A stretch of 64,000 nt of DNA from GCF_053078305.1 NZ_CP166879.1; one strand, 5' to 3'. Shown: positions 2,500 to 22,473, numbered from the stretch's first letter. Numbers and translations: made by a program. Notes: generated from the sequence alone by a model not told the origin.

Positions 2500-2799
2500 T
2501 TATTCTGCTTTATCAATAGGCGGGATAGCCGGAGGAGATTGAAGATCTGCTACCGAATTATTGCGCGCTTCCAGTTCACTGATGCGCTGCTCCAGTAACG
2601 CCAGTTTTTCACGAGTCCGTAACAGGACTTGCGTCTGTACGTCGAATTCTTCGCGGCTCACCAGATCGAGACGCGTCAGCTGCGCTTGTAGGGTTTGGCG
2701 GATTTTTTTCTCCACATCTTCCCCGAACTCCCTGATTCCTTTAGGCATTGATTCGTGAACCTGGCGAGCGATTTGCTCAATTTTTTTCGGGTCAATCAT
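2500..2799 (-). CDS. ubiK: Ubiquinone biosynthesis accessory factor UbiK (YqiC)
   Basis: ORF track 2500..2859; recognised protein starts at the internal Met [32 protein letters not shown]..., coiled-coil-like C-terminus. Confidence 0.85.
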
Positions 2800-2919
2800 T
2801 GTAGTTTCCCTGTACTGATAGGTGTTGAGTGCCATTGTAGTGCGATAAGGGTAAGTCATAAACCAGAATTATGTGAAGCTATGCGTTGCTGCCGCTAATC
2901 ATTAGCGTTATAGTGAATC

Positions 2920-3072
2920 CGCTTATTCTCAGGGCGGGGCGAAATTCCCCACCGGCGGTAAATCAACTCAGTTGAAAGCCCGCGAGCGCTTTGGGTGCGA
3001 ACTCAAAGGACAGCAGATCCGGTGTAATTCCGGGGCCGACGGTTAGAGTCCGGATGGGAGAGAGTAACGATT
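2920..3072 (+). promoter_or_regulatory. FMN riboswitch (RFN element) in the ribB leader
   Basis: Conserved RFN blocks visible: agggcggggcgaaattccccaccggcggtaaa ... cccgcgagcgc ... ggacagcagatccggtgtaattccggggccgacggttagagtccggatgggagag, about 100 nt upstream of the ribB ATG. Confidence 0.85.
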
Positions 3073-3174
3073 CTGTCGGGCATGGACCCGCTCACGTTAT
3101 TTTGGCTATATGCCGCCACTCCTAAGACTGCCCTGATTCTGGTAACCATAATTTTAGTGAGGTTTTTTTTTACC

Positions 3175-3828
3175 ATGAATCAGACGCTACTTTCCTCTTT
3201 TGGTACGCCTTTCGAACGTGTTGAAAATGCACTGGCTGCGCTGCGTGAAGGACGCGGTGTAATGGTGCTTGATGATGAAGACCGTGAAAACGAAGGTGAT
3301 ATGATCTTCCCGGCAGAAACCATGACTGTTGAGCAGATGGCGCTGACCATTCGCCACGGTAGCGGTATTGTTTGCCTGTGCATTACTGAAGATCGCCGTA
3401 AACAACTCGATCTGCCAATGATGGTAGAAAATAACACCAGCGCCTATGGCACCGGTTTTACCGTGACCATTGAAGCGGCTGAAGGTGTGACTACCGGTGT
3501 TTCTGCCGCTGACCGTATTACGACCGTTCGCGCAGCGATTGCCGATGGCGCAAAACCTTCTGATCTGAATCGCCCGGGCCACGTTTTCCCACTTCGCGCG
3601 CAGGCAGGTGGAGTACTGACGCGTGGCGGTCATACTGAAGCGACTATTGATCTGATGACGCTGGCAGGCTTTAAACCGGCTGGTGTGCTGTGTGAGCTGA
3701 CTAATGACGATGGCACGATGGCGCGTGCACCAGAGTGTATTGAGTTTGCCAATAAACACAACATGGCGCTCGTGACTATTGAAGACCTGGTGGCATACCG
3801 TCAGGCACATGAGCGTAAAGCCAGCTGA
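3175..3828 (+). CDS. ribB: 3,4-dihydroxy-2-butanone 4-phosphate synthase
   Basis: 217 aa from ATG at 3175 ([48 protein letters not shown]...); the ORF-track upstream extension from 3082 overlaps the riboswitch and is rejected. Confidence 0.95.
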
Positions 3829-3859
3829 AAACCGCTGCTTAATTTACTGCCTTAATCAA

Positions 3860-3896
3860 GAAACCGAAGTTGTAGCAGGCTTCGGTTTTTATTTTT
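3860..3896 (+). terminator. Intrinsic terminator after ribB
   Basis: Hairpin aaccgaag-N10-cttcggtt followed by a T-rich run (tttttattttt). Confidence 0.6.
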
Positions 3897-4089
3897 CCCT
3901 GCTATGCAAGATGTTAATTCCGCTTCTCTTTCTATGAGAAAATTTCATTAATATCAGGCATTCTTTTTCATTATGATCAAAATCATATAATTGTTCCGTT
4001 ATTATGCGACCATATGAATATATCCGAAAAAGGATATGTGAAATTTATGCGCTAAATGTTTAGTATTGTTAAATATTAAGGGTAAAAGG

Positions 4090-4260
4090 ATGTTTATCGC
4101 CTGGTACTGGATTGTATTGATTGTTCTGGTTGTGGTGGGTTATTTCCTGCATTTGAAACGTTATTGTCGGGCATTTCGCCAGGACAGAGACGCACTGCTT
4201 GAAGCGCGGAACAAATACTTAAACAGTACGAGAGAAGAGACAGCCGAAAAGGTAGAATAA
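4090..4260 (+). CDS. Hypothetical small membrane protein (56 aa from ATG; ORF track starts at TTG 4066)
   Basis: MFIAWYWIVLIVLVVVGYFLHLKRY... has one clear TM helix then a charged tail; AAGGG about 10 nt upstream of the ATG. No homolog recognised. Confidence 0.4.
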   Translation: MFIAWYWIVLIVLVVVGYFLHLKRYCRAFRQDRDALLEARNKYLNSTREETAEKVE

Positions 4261-4278
4261 GGCTTTAGTGAAACTAGC

Positions 4279-4307
4279 AGAAGTTGTCCATGCGCTGGAC
4301 AACTTCT
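4279..4307. terminator. 12-bp stem hairpin between the convergent small ORF and zupT (possible terminator)
   Basis: agaagttgtcca-tgcgc-tggacaacttct perfect inverted repeat; only a weak T tract on either strand. Confidence 0.4.
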
Positions 4308-4317
4308 GATGTTGCTT

Positions 4318-5091
4318 TTAACCAATTCCCGCCGTTTGTAGCAGCACTAAACTGAATCCCATCACTGACATTCCACATAGTACGCCATAGCTGGGGTTAT
4401 TATTAGGGTCAATCTCTTTGGCGAGCGGCATTAATTCATCAACCGAGAGCGCCACCATAATTCCTGCAACCGCCGCCATGATTGCCGCCATGACCACGGG
4501 GGAAATCATGCTACCGAGGATTAACCACGCCAGCACACCACCAAGAATTTCTGCCAATCCAGAAATCCCCGCCCACAGAATTGCCGTGCGTTTAGAACCC
4601 GTTGCTGCATAAACCGGGCCTGCAACCGCCAGACCTTCAGGAATATTGTGCAACGCGACGGCCAGTGCGATGCCAAATCCCAGCTCCAGGTTGCTGCTTG
4701 CCGTGACAAAGGTGGCAATCCCTTCCGGGAAGTTATGCAGACTGATGCCGAGAGTGAGCAGAATGGCTGTGCGCTTGATCGATTTTGGCAACGGCTGCAC
4801 CGATTTTTGCATTAAATCCTGCGGATGCGCATGTGGCAACATGCGGTCCAGGCCAAAATAGCCAAGCAGACCGAAGATAAACATTCCATAACCCAACACA
4901 GGCGACATTCCTTCAGCTGCTAGTGCGGCAGGAAGCATTTCCATTAATGAGATGAGCAACATGATCCCCGCCGCAAATCCTAGCGAAAACGCCAGTAAGC
5001 GGTTCGAGGGTTTTTGCCCGAGAACGCCGAGAAACGCGCCAATAAACGTGGCTGCCCCCGCCAGTATGGTCAGAATGAGAGGTACTGACAT
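4318..5091 (-). CDS. zupT: ZIP-family zinc transporter ZupT
   Basis: ORF track 4318..5133; recognised 257 aa protein starts [22 protein letters not shown]..., polytopic membrane protein with His-rich ZIP motifs (HNFPEG, HNIPEG). Confidence 0.9.
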
Positions 5092-5206
5092 CGACAACTC
5101 CTTATAAATCTTCACCTTCAGGCAGATCGTCAAAATAACTGATGATCATCATCATTGTTATCCGGGTTCTTACTCCGCCGAACAAGCGTATTGTGAGGAT
5201 ATCAAA

Positions 5207-6022
5207 ATGACACCTTTAGTTAAGGATATCATCATGTCTTCAACACGTATGCCAGCATTGTTTTTAGGTCACGGTAGTCCGATGAACGTGCTGGAAGATA
5301 ATTTGTATACCCGCAGCTGGCAGACGTTAGGGATGACATTGCCACGCCCGCAAGCGATTGTGGTAGTTTCGGCTCACTGGTTTACCCGTGGAACAGGAGT
5401 GACCGCGATGGAGACGCCGCCCACGATTCATGACTTTGGTGGCTTCCCGCAGGCGCTGTACGATACGCATTATCCTGCTCCGGGTTCGCCTGCGCTGGCA
5501 CAGCATCTGGTTGAGCTGTTAGCGCCGGTCCCGGTGACGCTGGATAAAGAAGCCTGGGGCTTTGACCACGGTTCCTGGGGCGTGCTGATTAAGATGTATC
5601 CTGACGCGGATATCCCGATGGTGCAGTTGAGTATCGATAGTAGCAAACCTGCCGCCTGGCATTTCGAAATGGGGCGAAAACTCGCGGCGCTGCGTGATGA
5701 AGGAATAATGTTGGTCGCCAGCGGCAACGTGGTGCATAACCTGCGTACAGTGAAGTGGCACGGTGATAGTTCACCGTATCCGTGGGCGACGTCGTTTAAT
5801 GAGTATGTGAAAGCGAATCTGACGTGGCAAGGGCCAGTAGAGCAGCATCCTCTGGTGAATTATCTCGACCATGAAGGTGGCGCGTTATCGAACCCAACGC
5901 CAGAGCACTATCTGCCGTTGTTGTATGTGTTAGGTGCGTGGGATGGGCAGGAGCCAATTACCATTCCGGTCGATGGTATAGAAATGGGCAGTTTAAGTAT
6001 GCTGTCGGTGCAGATAGGCTAA
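5207..6022 (+). CDS. ygiD: Extradiol ring-cleavage dioxygenase class III (DOPA-dioxygenase-like) YgiD
   Basis: 271 aa ORF; recognised. Start ambiguous: ATG 5207 (SD tgagga) or ATG 5234 (SD aagga, giving 262 aa). Confidence 0.85.
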   Translation: MTPLVKDIIMSSTRMPALFLGHGSPMNVLEDNLYTRSWQTLGMTLPRPQAIVVVSAHWFTRGTGVTAMETPPTIHDFGGFPQALYDTHYPAPGSPALAQHLVELLAPVPVTLDKEAWGFDHGSWGVLIKMYPDADIPMVQLSIDSSKPAAWHFEMGRKLAALRDEGIMLVASGNVVHNLRTVKWHGDSSPYPWATSFNEYVKANLTWQGPVEQHPLVNYLDHEGGALSNPTPEHYLPLLYVLGAWDGQEPITIPVDGIEMGSLSMLSVQIG

Positions 6023-12241: not shown

Positions 12242-14137
<1,896 letters not shown>

Positions 14138-14165
14138 TAATCCTCCCGCCAGAAGAATAAAACAT

Positions 14166-14198
14166 AGCCCGGTATACAAGTGTATACCGGGCTTTTTT
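14166..14198 (+). terminator. Intrinsic terminator after parE
   Basis: Hairpin agcccggtatac-aag-tgtataccgggct followed by TTTTTT; the receptor gene stop codon sits 3 nt beyond the T tract. Confidence 0.7.
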
Positions 14199-14200
14199 GA

Positions 14201-16342
14201 TCAAAATTCCATTTTCACCGTGAATTGCACTTCACGCGGATCGCCAATCTGATTCCCCAGATTATTTGTGGCGATGGAAGAGGTGTAATACGTTTTATCA
14301 AACAGGTTTTTGACGTTTAATTGCAGTGTGACCGGATACTGCAATTTCATTTTGTATGCGGCGAAGGCATCGGCAACGAAATAGCCTGGCAGATAATAGT
14401 CAGCCCCATTGGTTGCCGAACGACGGCTTACGCCATGTCCACCACCGCCAAACGTCAGTGTGTTATTGCCAGGCATGTTATGAATGTCATAGGTCAGGAA
14501 TAGCGAACCGGTATGACGAGGAACATTCGGCAATGGTTTCCCTGCATAATCAGGATCTTCCAGAACCTTAGCATCGGTATAGCCGTAGCTGGCAATGATA
14601 TTAATGTTTTCAGTTAATGCTCCCGCAAGGTCGACTTCTACCCCTCTTGAACGAACGCGGCCTGCCGTTTTGGCGATGGTTTCATCACCAATACTTTCGG
14701 TATACAACACGTTACGTTTATGGATATCAAACAGCGCAATATCTGCGGTTATACCATCGAACAGCTCGAATTTTGCCCCGACTTCGTAAGCATTAGATGA
14801 TTCCGGTGGAAGATCTCCGATGTAGCTGGCAATTGACGATTGCGGCATAAATGTTTGCGAATAATTAGCAAATAAGGATACCGATGGCGTCAGTTTGTAG
14901 ACTAACCCCAGTTTGGGCGTCCATTGTTCATCGCGGCTGTCAGTATTGACATTAAAAGGACGGCCTTTACCCGCATACTGCGTGTAATACTGATAGCGGA
15001 TCCCGGCGACGGCAATCCAGTTATCGGTCAGATAGAGCGCATCCTGTGCATAAGCTGAGTAGCTCTCCTGTTTGATCGTCTGATCACTGTCCGACGCCGA
15101 AACCGTTGTGCATTTGCTGGTATTGCCATAAACGGGGTTGTAGATATTGAAATCTTTAGCGTTTTTACAGCGAATCATATCTGTGCGCAGAAGATCATAA
15201 TATTCATATGACACCCCACCCAGAATCTCATTATAGAACCCAGCAATATCAACATTCCCTTGCAGATCCGCACGAGTAGAATGCATACGCTGGGTAGATC
15301 CCTGAGTTGCATCAACACGCCGTGTCAGCGTTCCTGTCGTTGCATCATACGCGGTAACGCGAGCCTGATTGTCGCTGTATTTATCCTGGCTGTAGCTGTA
15401 ATCAAAGCGCGCTGTCCACTGGCTATTGAGATGATATTCTGCGTTGAGTTGCGCCAGATCGGACTGACCATCTGTAATATTAAACGGTTCGTCAAAACGT
15501 ATTTTTCGATCAACGTTTACGGGCTGTTTCGTCGTAAGGTCGAAAATCGTTCCACGATCGAACGGAGTTTTATAGTCCCGATGGGAATAGAGCATGGTTA
15601 CTGTTGCATTATCACCAAACCAGGTGAGTGACGGGGCAATAAATGTACTGCGCTCTTTACCGAAGTTTCGCCAGTAATCTTCATCCTGCACTTCCCCCGT
15701 CAGGCGGTATGCCAGCTGAGTGCCTTCAATGGGACCTGTGATATCAAGTTGCCCAGTGCCTCCGCCAAAACTGGAGGACGTGGCTGAGACAGAACCATGG
15801 AATGTTTTTTCCGGGCGCTTGGTCACGACGTTAATCAATCCACCAGGATCGAGAATGCCATACAGCGTGGAGGCCGGACCTTTTAGCACTTCCACACGTT
15901 CTGTGGCGGCGTTGAAACTGCGAGGAAGTACAGTTCGCAGGCCGTTGGTCATGATGGAGCCATCCCGGTTAGCACCAAACCCACGACGTACAAAGGCGTC
16001 CTGAGTTCCGCCTAATGTATTGGTCTGTACCACGTTACTGACGTTATAAAGCGCTTCATCCAGCGTCGTTGCATTCTGATTTTCCAGAACCTGATCGCTA
16101 ACCGTATTGACCACCTGCGGGATATCCAGCATCGGCATATCGGTTAATGTCGCCGTGGAAGTGCTCAGAGGTTGATAACCATCGGTCGCCTCAGTTGCGG
16201 TATTTGCATCCGCTGTAACAGTGATTGTTTCGCCATCTTTGGTCGTTGCAGTGTCGGTTGCATGAATCATTGGTGCTGCAAAGAGCAGTGAAAAGAGCGC
16301 CCGACCTTTGATTCCTGAGAATGAAGGTGTGAACTTAGCCAT
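14201..16342 (-). CDS. TonB-dependent outer-membrane receptor, siderophore-receptor-like (accessory island; possibly fitA)
   Basis: 713 aa; signal peptide (MAKFTPSFSGIKGRALFSLLFAAPMIHA), TonB-box-like ETITVTA, plug then beta-barrel, C-terminal aromatic residue (...FTVKMEF). Confidence 0.9.
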   Translation of the reverse strand: MAKFTPSFSGIKGRALFSLLFAAPMIHATDTATTKDGETITVTADANTATEATDGYQPLSTSTATLTDMPMLDIPQVVNTVSDQVLENQNATTLDEALYNVSNVVQTNTLGGTQDAFVRRGFGANRDGSIMTNGLRTVLPRSFNAATERVEVLKGPASTLYGILDPGGLINVVTKRPEKTFHGSVSATSSSFGGGTGQLDITGPIEGTQLAYRLTGEVQDEDYWRNFGKERSTFIAPSLTWFGDNATVTMLYSHRDYKTPFDRGTIFDLTTKQPVNVDRKIRFDEPFNITDGQSDLAQLNAEYHLNSQWTARFDYSYSQDKYSDNQARVTAYDATTGTLTRRVDATQGSTQRMHSTRADLQGNVDIAGFYNEILGGVSYEYYDLLRTDMIRCKNAKDFNIYNPVYGNTSKCTTVSASDSDQTIKQESYSAYAQDALYLTDNWIAVAGIRYQYYTQYAGKGRPFNVNTDSRDEQWTPKLGLVYKLTPSVSLFANYSQTFMPQSSIASYIGDLPPESSNAYEVGAKFELFDGITADIALFDIHKRNVLYTESIGDETIAKTAGRVRSRGVEVDLAGALTENINIIASYGYTDAKVLEDPDYAGKPLPNVPRHTGSLFLTYDIHNMPGNNTLTFGGGGHGVSRRSATNGADYYLPGYFVADAFAAYKMKLQYPVTLQLNVKNLFDKTYYTSSIATNNLGNQIGDPREVQFTVKMEF

Positions 16343-16715
16343 TTAGTCTGTTATCCCAAAAACTCACGGATTGTCGTGAGTGAAAATTGTTTCTTGTTGC
16401 TCACTAAGCACTATCCGTTTGTTATTTCACCATCGGATATGTAATTGAGAATCATTCAACCATGCGGTAATGTAGTAGTAAATGAGAAATAACAAAAAAT
16501 TGCTACATGTGTTTTTTTGAGAGGTTAATGCAATTCAATTGATGGTAATTTATTAATATTTAATGATTTTATTTTTATCTTTAAAAATATTTCACCTGTT
16601 ATTTACCTTGTTTTTGTATGGCTTTTAACTTCTTGACTACTACATTTTGTGGCGTCAAACTCTCAAAAGAGAATGAGTTTTATTTTTGTTTGTCTTTGAT
16701 TAAGTTGGCGTACAC
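16343..16715. promoter_or_regulatory. Divergent promoter region between the receptor gene and the ABC-transporter operon; contains a Fur-box-like motif
   Basis: 373 bp AT-rich non-coding spacer; around 16438-16459 tatgtaattgagaatcattcaac partially matches the GATAATGATAATCATTATC Fur consensus. Not scored with a PWM. Confidence 0.4.
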
Positions 16716-17525
16716 GTGGCACATAACGCAAAAGGGCAGGGGCTGATCCTCGACAATGTTTCTGCCGGGTATCACAAGAAAATCATTGTTGATGGTGTTT
16801 CTTTCTCCGTTCCCACAGAAAAAATGACCGTTCTGGTTGGGGCAAACGGCTGTGGAAAGTCGACGTTGCTCAGCACCATTGCACGTATCTTGCAACCCAT
16901 GGGCGGCTCAATATTGCTGGATGGTAAAGCGATTCACGAGCAACCAACGAAAGCGTTATCCCGTAGACTTGGGATCTTGCCGCAGTCGCCATTATTGCCG
17001 GAGGGCTTAACCGTTTATGAACTGGTGTCGCGTGGGCGTTTTCCCTGGCAAAATTTCATACGTCAATGGAGCGACGCCGACGAGCAGGCGGTAGAAGAGG
17101 CCCTGAAATTAACCGGTACGCAGGAGTTTGCTCATTTACCTGTTGAAAAACTCTCTGGTGGGCAGCGCCAGCGTTGCTGGATTGCGATGGTGTTGGCGCA
17201 AAAGACGCCTTATATCCTACTGGATGAACCCACAACCTGGCTTGATTTACGTTATCAGGTTGAAATTCTTGAGTTATTACATGATTTAACGCGTCATCAC
17301 GGGCGTACAGTCGTCGTGGTGTTGCATGATCTGAATTTTGCCGTCAATTATGGTGATACGTTGATATTTTTACGCCAGGGGAAAGTGGTGCGTGTGTTGA
17401 ATGAGGGGGAGCATTGCACGCCTGAGCTGGTAAAAGCTGTCTTTGACGTTGATGTTCACGCATCAATAAATACTCTGACGGGAAAGCCGTTCTTCATGCC
17501 GTTTCGTGGTGTAGAAAAAGTATGA
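16716..17525 (+). CDS. ABC transporter ATP-binding protein, iron-siderophore (FepC/FecE-like) type
   Basis: Walker A GANGCGKST, ABC signature LSGGQRQR, Walker B ILLDEPT; GTG start at 16716 is uncertain. Confidence 0.85.
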   Translation: MAHNAKGQGLILDNVSAGYHKKIIVDGVSFSVPTEKMTVLVGANGCGKSTLLSTIARILQPMGGSILLDGKAIHEQPTKALSRRLGILPQSPLLPEGLTVYELVSRGRFPWQNFIRQWSDADEQAVEEALKLTGTQEFAHLPVEKLSGGQRQRCWIAMVLAQKTPYILLDEPTTWLDLRYQVEILELLHDLTRHHGRTVVVVLHDLNFAVNYGDTLIFLRQGKVVRVLNEGEHCTPELVKAVFDVDVHASINTLTGKPFFMPFRGVEKV

Positions 17526-18505
17526 TGCGCACAGGGCTGGTTACTGTAATTTTCCTCACCTTACTGCTGGTGGGATGCGTGGTATATCCAGGGATTGGTG
17601 CCCGATTTATTGCACCACAAACGGTGTTGCAGGCATTTCTTCATTTTGATCCGCAAAACTTCGATCACAGCGTAATTGTAAGACTCCGTTTGCCGCGTTT
17701 AGCGGCAGCATTGCTTACCGGTGCTTCTCTTGGTGTTGCCGGTGCTTTGTTGCAGGCTGTCATTCGTAACCCATTGGGGGAGCCACATATTTTAGGCTTA
17801 AATGCCGGAGCCGCTCTTGCTGTCGTTGCCGCCAGTGCGCTTGGACTGGCCTTTCCGGCTGGACGCCCACTGCTGGCATCTACGGGGGGCGCGTTATTGT
17901 TCCTGTTGATATTGCTGCTTTCCTCCGCAGGGCGTTCAGGGTTAACGCCAATGAAAGTTACTTTATGCGGCGTGGCGCTATCGGCGTTCGTGTCCTCAAT
18001 AACGGCTGCAATCCTGATTCTTGACGAACAAACACTGCTGGCGATGCGGACATGGCTAGCAGGTGATTTAGCGGGGCAGGATTGGGTGACGCTGGGTACG
18101 TCCGTCTGGTTTTCTCTGGGGGGATTTGTGTTAGCCATTTACCTTGCGCCCTCTCTTAACATGTTGGCACTGGGTGATCGCATGGCGCAGGGGCTGGGCG
18201 TCTCGGTACTCCGCACGCGAACATTCACCCTGCTTGCGATCGCGTTGCTCTGTGGCGCAGCCGTATCGATTGCTGGCCCCATTGGTTTTGTCGGCCTGCT
18301 AGTACCGCAGATTGTCCGGCGTCTGGTATCAGCGGATCTGCGCGTTCTGCTCCCTCTTTCAGCTTGTGTCGGCGCGCTTTTGTTATTACTGGCAGATATT
18401 ATTGCTCGGACGCTCTTCACGCCCCATGAGTTAGCGACCGGTGTCATGACGGCGTTAGTTGGTGCGCCTGTTTTTGTCATTATGGCGACGAGGATGTTCA
18501 AATGA
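17522..18505 (+). CDS. ABC transporter permease, FecCD family
   Basis: 327 aa polytopic membrane protein; start overlaps the ATPase stop and its stop overlaps the next start (ATGA), indicating translational coupling. Confidence 0.85.
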   Translation: MMRTGLVTVIFLTLLLVGCVVYPGIGARFIAPQTVLQAFLHFDPQNFDHSVIVRLRLPRLAAALLTGASLGVAGALLQAVIRNPLGEPHILGLNAGAALAVVAASALGLAFPAGRPLLASTGGALLFLLILLLSSAGRSGLTPMKVTLCGVALSAFVSSITAAILILDEQTLLAMRTWLAGDLAGQDWVTLGTSVWFSLGGFVLAIYLAPSLNMLALGDRMAQGLGVSVLRTRTFTLLAIALLCGAAVSIAGPIGFVGLLVPQIVRRLVSADLRVLLPLSACVGALLLLLADIIARTLFTPHELATGVMTALVGAPVFVIMATRMFK

Positions 18506-19551
18506 GTCGGATAATGAACGTCGGGCTACGCCCACTACGTGTTGGTAAGTTTTCGACACTGGTACGCCCTAAAAATCTGGTGTTGCTTGGTGGGCTGTTT
18601 CTGTTTGCGGTTGGAATACTGATATTCGGTCTGATGCATGGTTCTTTTTCTGTCCCGGCATCGGAAGTAGGACGAGCGTTGTTTGCTCCAGAAAACGTAA
18701 GCACAGACGCACGTTATATTGTGCAGGATATTCGCTTGCCGAGAGTCATCATGGCATTGCTATGCGGAGCCATGTTAGGTATGGCGGGGGCCGCGATGCA
18801 ATCCATTGCGCGTAACGGCCTTGCCGATCCTGGTTTAATCGGCGTCAAAGAAGGATGTAGCGTGGCGGTGCTGTGGCTGATTTTCCAGTTTCCAATGCTG
18901 GGAATGTTCTGGCGTCCAGTGGCTGGTCTTGCTGGTGGCTTGTTGGTGGCTTTAATCGTGATTTTTTGTGCACGCGATATTTCCCGCCCGCGATTTGTTC
19001 TGATTGGTATTGGTGTTTCCTGGTTTTTCGCCGCCGGTATCGGTGTATTTATGACCACTGCAGATGTTCGAGATGTACAAACTGCATTGATGTGGTTATC
19101 GGGAAGCCTGCATGCAGCTAACTGGATGTTAGTCGGTATTTCAGCCTGTTGGATGTTGCCAGCCACTCTTTTATTGCTGTTCACCGCCAGGACGGCGGAT
19201 ATCGCTCTGCTTGGTCATCAGGTTGCAACCGGGTTAGGGGTGAATAGTTCTCGTCTGGCGTTGTTACGTGTCGCCGCACCAATAATCCTGACAGCCGTCT
19301 GCGTTTCGTGTGTTGGTAACATCGGTTTTGTCGGATTGATAGCACCCCATATATCACGTTTTATTCTACGTGGCGGGCAGACGACATTACTGCTGGGGAG
19401 CGCCGTATCGGGGGCGTTGTTAGTCATCCTGGCGGATAGCATTGGTCGTTTGGCTTTTTTGCCTTTGCAACTGCCTGCCGGAATCATTATTTCATTGATT
19501 GGTGGACCATTCTTTTTGCTACTGCTCTGGCAGTGCAGGAACAGTTTTTAA
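18502..19551 (+). CDS. ABC transporter permease, FecCD family (second subunit)
   Basis: 349 aa polytopic membrane protein paralogous to the preceding permease. Confidence 0.85.
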   Translation: MSRIMNVGLRPLRVGKFSTLVRPKNLVLLGGLFLFAVGILIFGLMHGSFSVPASEVGRALFAPENVSTDARYIVQDIRLPRVIMALLCGAMLGMAGAAMQSIARNGLADPGLIGVKEGCSVAVLWLIFQFPMLGMFWRPVAGLAGGLLVALIVIFCARDISRPRFVLIGIGVSWFFAAGIGVFMTTADVRDVQTALMWLSGSLHAANWMLVGISACWMLPATLLLLFTARTADIALLGHQVATGLGVNSSRLALLRVAAPIILTAVCVSCVGNIGFVGLIAPHISRFILRGGQTTLLLGSAVSGALLVILADSIGRLAFLPLQLPAGIIISLIGGPFFLLLLWQCRNSF

Positions 19552-19561
19552 TGGGAGTTAT

Positions 19562-20509
19562 ATGCGTTTATTTTTTTCTCTGCTGATACTGTTGTCATTC
19601 TTTGCCCGCGCGACAGAACCTGTTCAGGTCTTTACTGATGATTTAGGGCGCAAAGTCACTGTTCCTGCTCATCCAAAGAGAATTGTCTCTTTACACGATC
19701 TTGATATCACTATTCCTCTGATTGAGCTCGGTGTACCTCCTGTCGCCAGCCACGGGCGAACTCGGCCTGACGGTAGCCATTTCATTCGATCAGGCGCGTT
19801 ATTGACAGGTGTCGACTTTGATAATTCATCGATCGCTTTTATTGGCACCGCTGATATTGATATTGAAGCGATTGTGGCGGCAAAGCCTGACCTGATTATC
19901 ACAGAACCGACCCGTAATACGCCCATTGAACAACTGGAAAAAATTGCGCCCACGGTGAGCATTGATCATCTCAAAGGAGGCGCGCCAGAAATCTACCGCA
20001 AGCTGGCAGAACTGACAGGAACGCAGTCGCAGCTGGCGATACTTGAACGCCGCTATCAGGCACAAATCAATGCGCTGAAGGCGACGCTGGACAGCCAAAA
20101 AATAACGGTATCGGTGATTCAGGCAAATCAGGGAAAAATTAATGTGATGCATAGCTATCATTCGCTGGGGCGGGTATTACGCGATGCTGGTTTTCGCTTT
20201 CCGCCGCTGATTGAGAGCATTCCTGAAGGTGGGCGAATGGATGTGAGCGCGGAGCGTTTACCTGAACTGGATGCCGATTTTGTTTTTGCAACCTGGCGCG
20301 GTGACACCGGTGGTAAACCTCAGGATGAGCTGGCAGCAATGGAAAAAGTCATGCCGGGATGGTGTCAGTTTCTGACTGCCTGTCGTTCCGGGCGTTATGT
20401 GCTGATTTCTCGTGAAGAGGCAATTTCTAACTCCTTTGCATCTCTGGGGCTGATGGCTGCGCAGATACAATCACAAATTGCGGGGCGACCTTTACCGGAG
20501 GCCAAATGA
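19562..20509 (+). CDS. Periplasmic substrate-binding protein (FepB/FhuD-like) of the ABC importer
   Basis: ORF track 19499..20509; preferred start is ATG 19562 (SD gggag) giving signal peptide MRLFFSLLILLSFFARA. Confidence 0.8.
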   Translation: MRLFFSLLILLSFFARATEPVQVFTDDLGRKVTVPAHPKRIVSLHDLDITIPLIELGVPPVASHGRTRPDGSHFIRSGALLTGVDFDNSSIAFIGTADIDIEAIVAAKPDLIITEPTRNTPIEQLEKIAPTVSIDHLKGGAPEIYRKLAELTGTQSQLAILERRYQAQINALKATLDSQKITVSVIQANQGKINVMHSYHSLGRVLRDAGFRFPPLIESIPEGGRMDVSAERLPELDADFVFATWRGDTGGKPQDELAAMEKVMPGWCQFLTACRSGRYVLISREEAISNSFASLGLMAAQIQSQIAGRPLPEAK

Positions 20510-21393
20510 TTCAGAAAGACAAAACGCGGGTTGATATTTATGGTGAGCGTTTTCGCACTCGCGCGAGTCAGTTAACGCCTGGGTTAAGAGCTGTCGCCAG
20601 CTATATTAATGAGCATCGTGAAGTGGTACTCGAGCAAACGGCGATGGAAATTGCGGCCACGTTGAACACTTCCGATGCCACAGTTATCAGGGCTATACAG
20701 GCCCTGGGGTTTGCCGGGCTGCGTGATCTGAAACGCACTCTGGAACAGTGGCTTGGTCCAGCCCTTAGTTCCAGCGAAAAGATGTCTACGACGGTGAGTA
20801 ACTTGACGAGCGATGTTAACACCGCAATCGACTTTGTTCTTGAAGGGCATTTGTATACCTGTAATGTCCTGTCAGAGCCTGAAAACCGCCACGCGCTTGC
20901 GCAAGCGGTAGCGTTGTTGGTACAGGCACGGCAAGTCGCAATTTTTGGCATTGGCGCTTCGGGTATTCTGGCGGACTATACCGCACGACTATTCAACCGC
21001 ATAGGTTTGCCAGCCACGGCACTAAACCGTACGGGTATTGGCCTTGCCGAGCAACTGATCGCGCTTCAACGTGGCGATGTTCTGATCATGATGGCGCAAA
21101 AATCTGCGCACCGGGAAGGGCTGACAACGCTGCGTGAAGCGAGACGGCTGGGGATCCCTGTTATTTTGCTGACAAACGCGCTGGATTCACGTTTTAGCAA
21201 AGACGCCAGTATCGTGATTCATGTTCCGCGCGGGGATGAAAAGGGGAAAACGCCACTACATGGTACGGTATTGTTGTGCCTGGAAATGATTGTCTGGTCG
21301 GTGGCTTCCGCGGTGCCGCAGCGTGCGGTTAAAACCATTAAGCGAATTAACGATTTCCATCGGGGGCTGAAAACGGGAAGAAAGAATGGCTAA
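20506..21393 (+). CDS. RpiR-family transcriptional regulator (N-terminal HTH plus C-terminal SIS phosphosugar-binding-like domain)
   Basis: 295 aa; HTH region (EIAATLNTSDATVIRAIQALGF) and SIS-like region (VAIFGIGASGILADYTARLFNRIG); start overlaps the binding-protein stop. Confidence 0.85.
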   Translation: MIQKDKTRVDIYGERFRTRASQLTPGLRAVASYINEHREVVLEQTAMEIAATLNTSDATVIRAIQALGFAGLRDLKRTLEQWLGPALSSSEKMSTTVSNLTSDVNTAIDFVLEGHLYTCNVLSEPENRHALAQAVALLVQARQVAIFGIGASGILADYTARLFNRIGLPATALNRTGIGLAEQLIALQRGDVLIMMAQKSAHREGLTTLREARRLGIPVILLTNALDSRFSKDASIVIHVPRGDEKGKTPLHGTVLLCLEMIVWSVASAVPQRAVKTIKRINDFHRGLKTGRKNG

Positions 21394-21401
21394 TCTGACC
21401 T

Positions 21402-21430
21402 GAGGCCGGTAGCAACACCGGCCTCTTTTC
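21402..21430 (+). terminator. Intrinsic terminator after the RpiR-family gene
   Basis: Hairpin gaggccggt-agcaac-accggcctc followed by TTTT, directly before the ygiN stop on the opposite strand. Confidence 0.6.
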
Positions 21431-21437
21431 AGGAATG

Positions 21438-21752
21438 TTAAATCCCCGGTTGCAGAATACGGATATTCATCTCCAGCACGTCGCCTTTTACGGCTTCGCT
21501 GTACGCCTTCATGTGCGGGGTTTGCAGATGCGCTTCAAGGTGCGCGATGCTTTCCCACTGCTCAATCATCACGATAGAGTCCGGTGCCATAGACTGGAAA
21601 CTCACGCCAGCAGCGCAATCCACCATTGGCGCATAGCCGTGGCAACCTTCTTCTTTCAGTACGGTTGGAACGATTTTAGCAAACTGATCCAATACCGCCT
21701 GACGGTGATGTTGACCAGGACGAGTACGGATTTCTGCGATTACGGTAAGCAT
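21438..21752 (-). CDS. ygiN: Quinol monooxygenase YgiN (ABM domain)
   Basis: 104 aa, MLTVIAEIRTRPGQHHRQAVLDQFAKIVP... recognised. Confidence 0.9.
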   Translation of the reverse strand: MLTVIAEIRTRPGQHHRQAVLDQFAKIVPTVLKEEGCHGYAPMVDCAAGVSFQSMAPDSIVMIEQWESIAHLEAHLQTPHMKAYSEAVKGDVLEMNIRILQPGI

Positions 21753-22364: not shown

Positions 22365-22473
22365 TTTTTAACCTCAAGGTGAGACGTTTGCCGACTATAG
22401 TACGTCACAGAGCGGTACGGTGAAATTAGCAAAATGTGCAAAGTCTTTTGCGAATTTAGCAAAAGTCTTACCC

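Follow-up and report, generated by a model that had tools for sequence, protein, structure and literature searches.

The fit cluster between parE and ygiN

In the window, a stretch of DNA of 64,000 nucleotides (NZ_CP166879.1), six genes lie between the core genes parE and ygiN, with fitA divergent from fitB-C-D-E-fitR as in the published fit locus (Table 1). The original prediction had described a receptor, an ATPase, two permeases, a binding protein and an RpiR-family regulator at this position, all of which are present, and a RefSeq record 100% identical to the stretch is annotated with the same six products. NCBIfam models assign them to the siderophore receptors (TIGR01783), FecE/FecC/FecD-like ATPase and permeases, Peripla_BP_2-type binding proteins and MurR/RpiR regulators.

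Judged by its sequence, the 7.2-kb stretch is the known E. coli fit iron-uptake cluster (Ouyang & Isaacson, 2006/2008), as had been suspected. With 0-4 mismatches each, all 18 published fit primers (PMC2593036) fall on the gene and strand predicted for them, which identifies the six genes as the fit locus, and the control primers for fepA, gst and polA do not map in the stretch. Mature FitE matches PDB 3BE5/3BE6 (E = 2e-195). The fit system of strain i484, c3771-c3775 of CFT073 and the O157:H7 FitE of these two structures agrees with it in gene content, order, orientation and position on the chromosome, with no difference of substance, and the present allele is 97-99% identical to most other fit-bearing strains. 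A position between ygiN and parE has also been published for the "fit operon" (GR22) of strain BEN2908 (PMC12928451). The locus, its location, direct Fur control, FitR autorepression and the FitE crystal structure are thus already known, and the novelty here is incremental, consisting of an inverted 12-nucleotide motif pair and a non-canonical phosphate loop in the SIS domain of FitR. The locus itself, as published Fur-regulated accessory iron uptake, needs no new explanation; it is used to mark extra-intestinal and adherent-invasive E. coli.

The cluster is carried by 1870 of 5426 complete E. coli genomes (about a third), of which 5425 have parE. It is not the case that K-12 and most E. coli carry the six genes, as about 66% of the complete genomes lack them, and the predicted accessory status holds. 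In K-12 MG1655, parE and ygiN are indeed adjacent, 47 bp apart and without fit.

Table 1. Genes and predicted elements at the parE-ygiN interval (positions counted from the first nucleotide of the window)
Feature	Position	Strand	Description
parE	12245-14137	+	flanking core gene; last codon and stop gtc tga (K-12, gtt taa)
Bidirectional terminator	14166-14198		12-bp stem, 4-nt loop, T tract on +, T-rich tail on -
fitA	14201-16342	-	TonB-dependent outer-membrane receptor, 713 aa
Stem-loop, predicted fitA leader	16362-16381	-	ACUCACG-ACAAUC-CGUGAGU, then U run and GGGA ribosome-binding site
Fur-box-like block	16440-16459		tgtaattgagaatcattcaa; invariant in 14 genus-level sequences
Motif copy A	16471-16482	+	TGTAGTAGTAAA; candidate FitR operator
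Motif copy B	16633-16644	-	TGTAGTAGTCAA (+ strand reading TTGACTACTACA); candidate FitR operator
Second Fur-box-like conserved block	16667-16691		aagagaatgagttttatttttgt; around predicted PfitB transcription start
fitB	16716-17525	+	ABC ATPase, 269 aa, GTG start; end overlaps fitC start
fitC	17522-18505	+	FecCD-family permease, 327 aa
fitD	18514-19551	+	FecCD-family permease, 345 aa from RefSeq start; open frame from 18502
fitE	19562-20509	+	periplasmic binding protein, 315 aa
fitR	20506-21393	+	MurR/RpiR-family (HTH_6 + SIS) repressor, 295 aa; overlaps fitE stop
Hairpin	21402-21429		GAGGCCGG-tagcaaca-CCGGCCTC and TTTT; between fitR and ygiN
ygiN	21438-21752	-	flanking core gene

Age and origin of the cassette

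Divergence from the empty allele starts inside the last parE codon, and the variable segment therefore spans about 14134 to 21437. On the parE side, the fitA stop lies just past the T tract of the terminator, as originally described. This terminator travels with fitA: it adjoins fitA in an allele with two cassettes in tandem, its GGGCTTTTTT(G/AC)ATCA end is conserved across genera, and in the fit-only allele it serves parE too. On the ygiN side, a hairpin with an 8-bp stem (21402-21425, followed by TTTT) stands close to the ygiN stop at 21438, where a terminator of the regulator had been predicted. The hairpin is also present in the allele with an alternative cassette and is therefore part of the ygiN flank, not of fit. 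Altogether, the E. coli parE-ygiN site has four states: empty, fit, a different 8.3-kb cassette, and both in tandem.

The original prediction had read the cluster as a precise insertion with its own terminators. Recent horizontal acquisition by the lineage of this strain, with precise insertion of an island between the two core genes, would agree with the absence of fit from K-12 and from the majority of complete genomes, with a GC content slightly below that of the flanks (0.493 vs 0.52), and with the second cassette at the same site, which indicates that the interval accepts foreign DNA. We nevertheless consider it very improbable. In at least four other genera, Enterobacter, Lelliottia, Silvania and Huaxiibacter, the complete cassette likewise lies between parE and ygiN, as it does in a cryptic Escherichia species. 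Against these genera, the proportion of four-fold degenerate sites that differ is 0.53-0.72 in the fit genes vs 0.33-0.60 in the flanking genes, and within Escherichia fit and flanks are similarly diverged. Divergence at four-fold sites at least equal to that of the flanking genes would rule out recent transfer, and it fits an old resident lost from K-12-type lineages. Purifying selection on fit is evident from an amino-acid identity of 87-91% despite differences at about 0.6 of the four-fold sites. Base composition is only mildly atypical, the GC3 of the fit genes being 0.46-0.53 vs 0.56 ± 0.06 (about 0.5-1.7 standard deviations of the window background), which also speaks against insertion. 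The ORFs and a repeat search at the locus revealed no integrase, transposase, tRNA gene, flanking direct repeat or target duplication, in agreement with the earlier remark that mobility genes and flanking repeats are not visible; with near-background GC3 and synteny across genera, the locus does not have the make-up of a mobile genomic island. Finally, the alleles differ not only in the cassette but over the entire intergenic sequence and in the stop codon of parE. A hybrid junction in TR01 was considered as a relic of the original insertion and rejected, since only one genome, from a recent clone, has it.

On this comparative evidence, fit has long been resident between parE and ygiN in the Escherichia/Enterobacter lineage and was not recently inserted there; the empty site of K-12 type is most likely a loss. 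The four-state site illustrates that an "island" lacking mobility genes can be an old allele, subject to exchange or loss via flanking genes, and absence from K-12 is therefore no proof of insertion.

The divergent control region and FitR

The fitA-fitB control region is AT-rich and 373 bp long. One Fur-box-like block, tgtaattgagaatcattcaa, overlaps the predicted -10 box of PfitA (TTGAAT, minus strand, 16454-16459), and the other surrounds the predicted start of PfitB. Fur control of fit has been reported (PMC2593036, PMC7157518), and published Fur ChIP targets include c3771-c3775. In a consensus promoter scan, neither PfitA nor PfitB, both placed by conservation, reached the threshold.

Each of the 39 loci studied (750 kb) contains exactly two copies of a 12-nucleotide motif, both within the control region and in inverted orientation to each other. 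Copy A overlaps the predicted -35 box of PfitA (TTTACT, minus strand, 16477-16482), and copy B overlaps that of PfitB (TTGACT, 16633-16638; predicted -10 CAAACT, 16656-16661). The two copies are 161-163 or 183-185 bp apart in the 39 loci, with a variation of ±1 bp within each clade. The pair is also present, at a distance of 228 bp, in a cluster with a 60%-identical receptor and a FitR-like gene, and related clusters with no FitR-like gene do not have it; the motif thus strictly co-occurs with fitR. Its spacing changes in steps near whole helical turns, and 228 bp fits only at a helical repeat of about 10.8-10.9 bp. Both the strict co-occurrence and the near-helical steps suggest that the inverted TGTAGTAGT(A/C)AA pair over the two -35 boxes represents candidate FitR operators joined by a DNA loop. 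The operators are assigned by association, and we infer the promoter positions and the looping as well as the operators themselves.

The overlap of both copies with -35-like hexamers could also indicate a promoter element (an extended -35 box) or a binding site for some other factor encoded on the chromosome, and a single copy is not palindromic, which would be unusual for a dimeric helix-turn-helix protein. We consider either explanation unlikely, given that the motif follows FitR-type genes even to a cluster with a much diverged receptor, that all 12 positions are invariant, far beyond the needs of a -35 box, and that the spacing is constant within each clade. Repression by iron and Fur, repression by FitR, and FitR binding to a fitA-fitB intergenic fragment by EMSA have been published (PMC2593036), and the Fur-box-like blocks and the motif pair are in keeping with this regulation; the EMSA fragment, mapped by its primers to 16364-16722, includes both motif copies.

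The predicted hairpin in the fitA leader is found at the same offset in most genera with different sequences, and as a conserved element it is suggestive only. RNAalifold predicted no pairs on a MAFFT alignment of the leader, single-sequence z-scores were unremarkable, and a clade-restricted alignment placed the stems in inconsistent registers. A shuffle test on contiguous stems was modestly positive at most (mean stem 6.4 vs 5.0, median p 0.2). A separate Rfam search returned chance-level matches only.

FitR keeps the HTH_6 and SIS architecture and the first SIS loop (GIGASG) of the MurR/RpiR/HexR/NanR family and, like its members, acts as a repressor on a divergent promoter region (PMC2593036). 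All its family scores are below cut-off. Its second SIS loop, the phosphate loop, reads AQKSAHR in every orthologue instead of the SxSGx[ST]K of its relatives (SSSGSTK in NanR, SQSGRSK in 8K3B). It also differs from the family in controlling a metal-chelate importer, not sugar catabolism, and in having candidate operators 162-228 bp apart. The HexR half-site is TGTAAT, to which the TGTAGT core of the fit motif is similar.

Transport, ligand class and induction

FitA has a signal peptide, a TonB box (ETITVTA) and, as Pfam domains, Plug and barrel only. It lacks an N-terminal STN signalling domain and the fit locus contains no FecI/FecR genes, which is not the make-up of a FecA/FpvA-type transducer. 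In a relative at 46% identity, a FecI/FecR sigma/anti-sigma pair is present. FitA has been detected elsewhere as an expressed outer-membrane protein. It passes the generic siderophore-receptor model TIGR01783 (374 vs a cut-off of 224), but it reaches none of the curated equivalog cut-offs for characterised receptors (FhuA, FhuE, FoxA, Fiu, FauA, FecA, FepA/CirA/IreA), with scores and NCBIfam cut-offs of 230/803 for FhuA, 166/1300 for FoxA, 163/666 for FhuE, 152/686 for Fiu and 102/1100 bits for FecA. The nearest solved receptors are FetA, FoxA, FhuA and FptA, not FepA or CirA. Orthologues at about 90% identity, without informative names, were all that a word-indexed protein search returned.

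Among known systems, FhuA/FhuCDB for ferrichrome and FoxA (with FoxB) for ferrioxamine have receptors of the same broad clade, FhuA and FoxA being among the best NCBIfam and PDB matches of FitA. Like fit, they combine Peripla_BP_2, FecCD and ABC components under Fur control, with a cargo not made by the cell. They differ in the distance of FitA from their equivalog cut-offs, in the fused FhuB of Fhu where fit has two separate permeases, and in that fit has its own RpiR-type repressor. For FitB, FitC and FitD, the highest scores are those against FecE, FecC and FecD of the ferric dicitrate system, all below cut-off, and the ABC parts are also FhuB-like. Both fec and fit have their own regulator; in contrast to FecABCDE, with its STN-bearing receptor and FecI/FecR pair, fit is regulated by a cytoplasmic repressor.

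Identification of the substrate was not found in the searchable literature, by gene name or locus tag (including PMC5907654, 2018; PMC9409007, 2022), as the original prediction had held. Siderophore-biosynthesis genes are absent beside the cluster in the inspected genera, non-syntenic clusters included, and beside six relatives at 40-60% identity, and the neighbourhood therefore gives no clue to the ligand. Three genera have a PepSY_TM gene, of a siderophore-reductase family, inserted in the cluster; this and the lack of adjacent biosynthesis genes point to a cargo made by other organisms. Based on weak similarity (about 25-30%), the ligand class would be a non-catecholate chelate of such foreign origin.

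Instead of a classical ferric siderophore, the cargo might be of another kind, such as a different metal chelate, a corrinoid-like compound or a sugar-derived chelate, with the SIS regulator reporting a carbohydrate-type signal. The failure of FitA to reach the cut-off of any characterised receptor family and the phosphosugar-sensing family of the regulator would agree with this, as would the CbiA/CobQ-type amidotransferases adjoining a relative at 46% identity and, in one paper, a paraphrase of the 2006 study as Fe2+/Co2+/Cd2+ uptake. It appears quite improbable all the same, given that Fur represses and iron starvation induces the locus, that FitA passes the siderophore-receptor subfamily model, that the relatives of FitE all bind siderophores, that the phosphate-binding loop of FitR is non-canonical, and that the gene inserted in some clusters is of siderophore-reductase type.

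Thus, fit is very probably a TonB-dependent, ABC-type importer for a ferric chelate not made by the cell, doubly repressed and an old resident of its site. FitA would bring the ligand across the outer membrane with energy supplied by TonB through the ETITVTA box, FitE would ferry it through the periplasm, and the permeases FitC and FitD with the ATPase FitB would import it. Fur-Fe2+ would repress at the Fur-box-like sites over the -10/+1 region of each promoter, and FitR, encoded last in the operon, would act as an autorepressor that binds the two motifs over the -35 boxes and bridges them by a DNA loop.

A further possibility, which we put forward as tentative and somewhat doubtful, is that FitR, as an atypical repressor of the RpiR/SIS type, senses the imported chelate or its cytoplasmic product in a remodelled pocket (AQKSAHR loop) and represses both divergent promoters by looping between two helically phased 12-nucleotide operators. 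The cargo has been missing since 2006, and the predicted operator pair together with FitR suggests a practical route to it. If the proposal is true, Fit would import a foreign chelate and be inducible by this substrate, a type of control without a described precedent among enterobacterial siderophore systems, and the operator and FitR would allow the long-missing ligand of Fit to be screened for directly with a reporter.

Identity and gene content of the locus

Six genes had been predicted between parE and ygiN, and this is confirmed by the open reading frames (ORFs) of the window, with six intact genes at 14199-21437. The RefSeq chromosome of E. coli TUM13936, in which the island is 100% identical, carries the same six annotated products with parE and ygiN on either side, and the two flanking genes are only 47 bp apart in MG1655 (K-12). 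At fitB/fitC and at fitE/fitR, the stop codon of one gene overlaps the start codon of the next, consistent with a single fitB-fitR operon.

To test whether this locus is fit, the primer sequences listed by Ouyang & Isaacson 2008 (PMC2593036) were placed on the window. Each of the 18 for fit (fitA, B, C, D, E and R, the promoter pair and those for cloning) falls on its expected gene and strand, at 0-4 mismatches, whereas the fepA, gst and polA control primers match the window with 6 mismatches at best. FitE matches PDB 3BE5/3BE6, named E. coli FitE in other papers, along the entire mature protein (E = 2e-195). The position is also published, since strain BEN2908 is listed with "GR22, ygiN..parE, fit operon, 7193 bp", which is missing from MG1655 (PMC12928451). 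In CFT073, Fur binds directly at the fit genes c3771-c3775 (PMC7157518). FitR is an autorepressor by genetics, binds a fitA-fitB intergenic fragment by electrophoretic mobility shift assay (EMSA) and acts independently of Fur (PMC2593036). Taken together, the primer matches, the FitE structure and the published position and regulation identify the island as the already known fit system.

Features of the fit locus and its surroundings (window positions)
Feature	Position	Strand or orientation	Basis
20-nt inverted match (85%), parE and ygiN arms	14108-14127 / 21469-21488	inverted	
fitA-side hairpin	14166-14193		
fitA, TonB-dependent receptor, 713 aa	14201-16342	-	ORF
fitA-fitB spacer (control region), 373 bp, 30% G+C	between 16342 and 16716		ORF map
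fitA leader stem-loop	16362-16381	- (RNA)	
Fur-box-like block	16440-16459		invariant in alignment
12-nt motif copy TGTAGTAGTAAA	16471-16482	one of inverted pair	invariant in alignment
12-nt motif partner TTGACTACTACA	16633-16644	inverted relative to first copy	invariant in alignment
Fur-box-like block	about 16667-16691		invariant in alignment
fitB, ABC ATPase	16716-17525	+	ORF
fitC, FecCD permease	17522-18505	+	ORF
fitD, FecCD permease	18514-19551	+	ORF
fitE, periplasmic binding protein	19562-20509	+	ORF
fitR, MurR/RpiR regulator	20506-21393	+	ORF
mdaB-qseC interval, ygiZ missing	22365-22473		

Age and allelic states of the parE-ygiN interval

Among 5426 complete E. coli genomes, the island is found in 1870 and parE in 5425; fit is therefore accessory, as predicted from its absence in K-12. 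FitA orthologues (71-91% identity) are present in 39 species-level genomes of Escherichia, Enterobacter, Lelliottia, Silvania, Huaxiibacter, Citrobacter, Kosakonia, Kluyvera, Yokenella, Erwinia, Pantoea and Affinibrenneria, and the six genes are kept as a unit wherever the fetched DNA reaches far enough. In Enterobacter, Lelliottia, Silvania, Huaxiibacter and a cryptic Escherichia species, the complete cassette is likewise flanked by parE and ygiN.

This shared site speaks against the precise insertion of the original prediction being a recent one, and so do divergence and composition. Between the window and the parE-syntenic genera, the share of four-fold degenerate sites that differ is 0.53-0.72 in the fit genes, compared with 0.33-0.51 in the flanking cpdA, yqiA, parE, ygiN and mdaB and 0.49-0.60 in qseBC; inside Escherichia, fit and its flanks are about equally divergent. 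The four-fold-site comparison with the flanking genes thus gives no sign of a recent transfer. The amino-acid identity of FitA to these genera remains 87-91%, which indicates strong purifying selection. The GC content of fit (0.493 versus 0.52) and the GC3 of its genes (0.46-0.53 versus a window background of 0.56 ± 0.06) are slightly lower, but only mildly atypical, and no direct repeats flank the island. On this comparison of E. coli with a cryptic Escherichia species, Enterobacter, Lelliottia, Silvania and Huaxiibacter, it is reasonably likely that fit is ancestral to E. coli and that the K-12 state is a loss.

The junctions do not support an insertion with its own terminators either. The difference from the empty allele (parE adjoining ygiN without a cassette) begins within the last parE codon and spans the entire spacer. 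The hairpin previously taken for the parE terminator moves with fitA, adjoining it even where another cassette parts fitA from parE, and its GGGCTTTTTT(G/AC)ATCA end is conserved across other genera. The ygiN-side hairpin is also present in an allele without fit. One of the 5426 genomes, that of O157:H7 strain TR01 (comparison locus L004, 1497-1566), has a hybrid parE-fitA junction, in which a K-12-type hairpin and 'aaacaagg' lead, through a shared ACAAG, into the right arm of the hairpin next to fitA; either recombination or an assembly artefact has produced it. Inside the coding regions of parE and ygiN, at their 3′ ends, an inverted match brackets the variable site; the peptides it encodes are alike (KGDMAEI and KGDVLEM), and coincidence is the probable explanation.

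Since the 1870 island genomes and the 3268 with a K-12-type spacer fall short of the 5425 with parE, other states of the site were sought. An alternative cassette of ~8.3 kb was found at parE-ygiN in 409 E. coli genomes (e.g., L044 700-9000, NZ_AP026937.1; L046 2667-10909, NZ_CP069480.1), with genes for a DUF2608 protein, a porin, a phytase-like esterase, a sugar (carbohydrate) kinase, a SIS protein, an ADP-ribosylglycohydrolase, a GntR regulator and an MFS transporter. Strain FDAARGOS_1257 carries both cassettes in tandem, with the alternative one on the parE side and fit on the ygiN side. The 5425 sites are made up of 3268 empty, about 1748 with fit only, about 287 with the alternative only and about 122 in tandem, the last agreeing with the number of fit-bearing genomes without a window-type parE-fitA spacer, 123. 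The interval is best regarded as old and multi-allelic, with cassettes that are lost or exchanged via the flanking genes.

Some Enterobacter/Lelliottia genomes have further DNA between fitA and parE (L008 and L010, about 6.9 kb; L035, about 3.6 kb) or between fitR and ygiN (L009, L011 and L026, 0.4-0.6 kb), and their spacers are filled by REP-like palindromes, which is further evidence of a hotspot. One plasmid-labelled record holds parE, the fit island and an island-type junction, and may be mislabelled or a chromosome-derived replicon. The spot after mdaB is a further variable spot adjoining the site. In K-12, ygiZ is situated between mdaB and qseC; it is missing in the window, where these genes are 109 bp apart, and in another fit-bearing strain (L045), and is present in an empty-site strain (L001) and an alternative-cassette strain (L044). 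FDAARGOS_1257 has a type VI secretion Hcp gene at this position (L046 19430-20001).

Receptor, transporter and cargo

The cargo of fit was called "unknown" in a 2018 paper, with enterobactin excluded (PMC5907654), is likewise not identified in one of 2022 (PMC9409007), and no identification was found in the searchable literature, locus-tag searches included. In this respect, as in fit identity and accessory status, the original prediction stands; the precise insertion with its own terminators does not. The only NCBIfam model that FitA passes is TIGR01783, a generic subfamily of siderophore receptors (374 bits, cut-off 224), and FitA scores far under the cut-off of every specific equivalog, including FhuA, FoxA, FhuE, Fiu, FauA, FecA and FepA/CirA/IreA. 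The closest solved receptors are FetA (enantio-pyochelin), FoxA, FhuA and FptA, and catecholate receptors gave local matches only in the structure search. FitA has a signal peptide and a TonB box (ETITVTA), and has no STN signalling domain, since Plug and barrel are the sole domains recorded for its cluster. After its own crystal structure, the next relatives of FitE are YfiY, Bacillus FhuD, FepB and SirA, and FitB, FitC and FitD resemble FecE, FecC and FecD (NCBIfam).

No siderophore-biosynthesis cluster lies beside fit in the non-syntenic genera inspected, where the neighbours vary. FitA relatives at 40-60% identity are likewise orphans in the contexts inspected: one belongs to a complete fit-like cluster with an HTH_6+SIS regulator, one has the same transporter without a regulator, one is a lone receptor adjoining a PepSY_TM-flavodoxin reductase, and one is a FecI/FecR-type transducer. 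Another (46% identity; L052 and L053, 10001-18690) has its own FecCD/Peripla_BP_2/ABC importer, directly followed by two CbiA/CobQ-type amidotransferase genes, which hints that some receptors of the FitA clade may import corrinoid-like compounds. Between fitE and fitR, Erwinia sp. JUb26 and Affinibrenneria salicis carry a PepSY_TM gene and two PstS-family-like binding-protein genes (L032 2600-5666; L034 2392-5512), and Pantoea coffeiphila has a ~3-kb gap of the same size (L042, about 2600-5670). We infer that fit imports a compound that other organisms make. A non-catecholate ferric chelate is probable, this ligand class being tentative.

The SIS phosphate loop of FitR reads AQKSAHR, in contrast to SSSGSTK in NanR and SQSGRSK in 8K3B, and this form is kept in every FitR orthologue. 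Given this non-family loop, the effector of FitR may be other than a phosphosugar.

Control region and candidate FitR operators

When 14 genus-level sequences of the control region are aligned, the spacer proves largely unconserved but holds invariant blocks, two of them Fur-box-like and two forming an inverted pair of a 12-nt motif. Both motif copies overlap a -35-like hexamer, 17 bp from a -10-like hexamer whose A at position 2 and T at position 6 are kept across genera. The motif has only two exact matches in the 64-kb window, both in the control region, and exactly two per locus in 39 of the 39 fetched loci (750 kb), always inverted and confined to the control region. Measured from start to start, the two copies are 161-163 bp apart in the parE-syntenic clade, compared with 183-185 bp in the other loci, a 21-bp step equal to two helical turns. 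One cluster with an only 60% identical receptor and a FitR-like gene has two inverted copies, both perfect, at a spacing of 228 bp, and none was found in the control regions of related clusters without a FitR-like regulator; this sequence comparison supports a link between motif and FitR. The EMSA fragment (16364-16722) takes in both copies. Based on the conservation, spacing and co-occurrence of the motif and the span of this fragment, we propose that the pair are candidate operators, which FitR would bind to repress both divergent promoters via a DNA loop.

In the fitA leader, a 6-10-bp stem-loop follows the conserved GGGCAATGA at a fixed offset, and a U run and the ribosome-binding site come after it (alignments A2 and A3). 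Its stems are of different sequence from genus to genus, and in Enterobacter the changes are apparently compensatory; statistical support for the stem-loop is weak.

To what is published on fit, this analysis adds synteny across genera, a parE-ygiN site with four states, and the operator and loop model. The model is testable, and could give a reporter handle to find the missing fit ligand.
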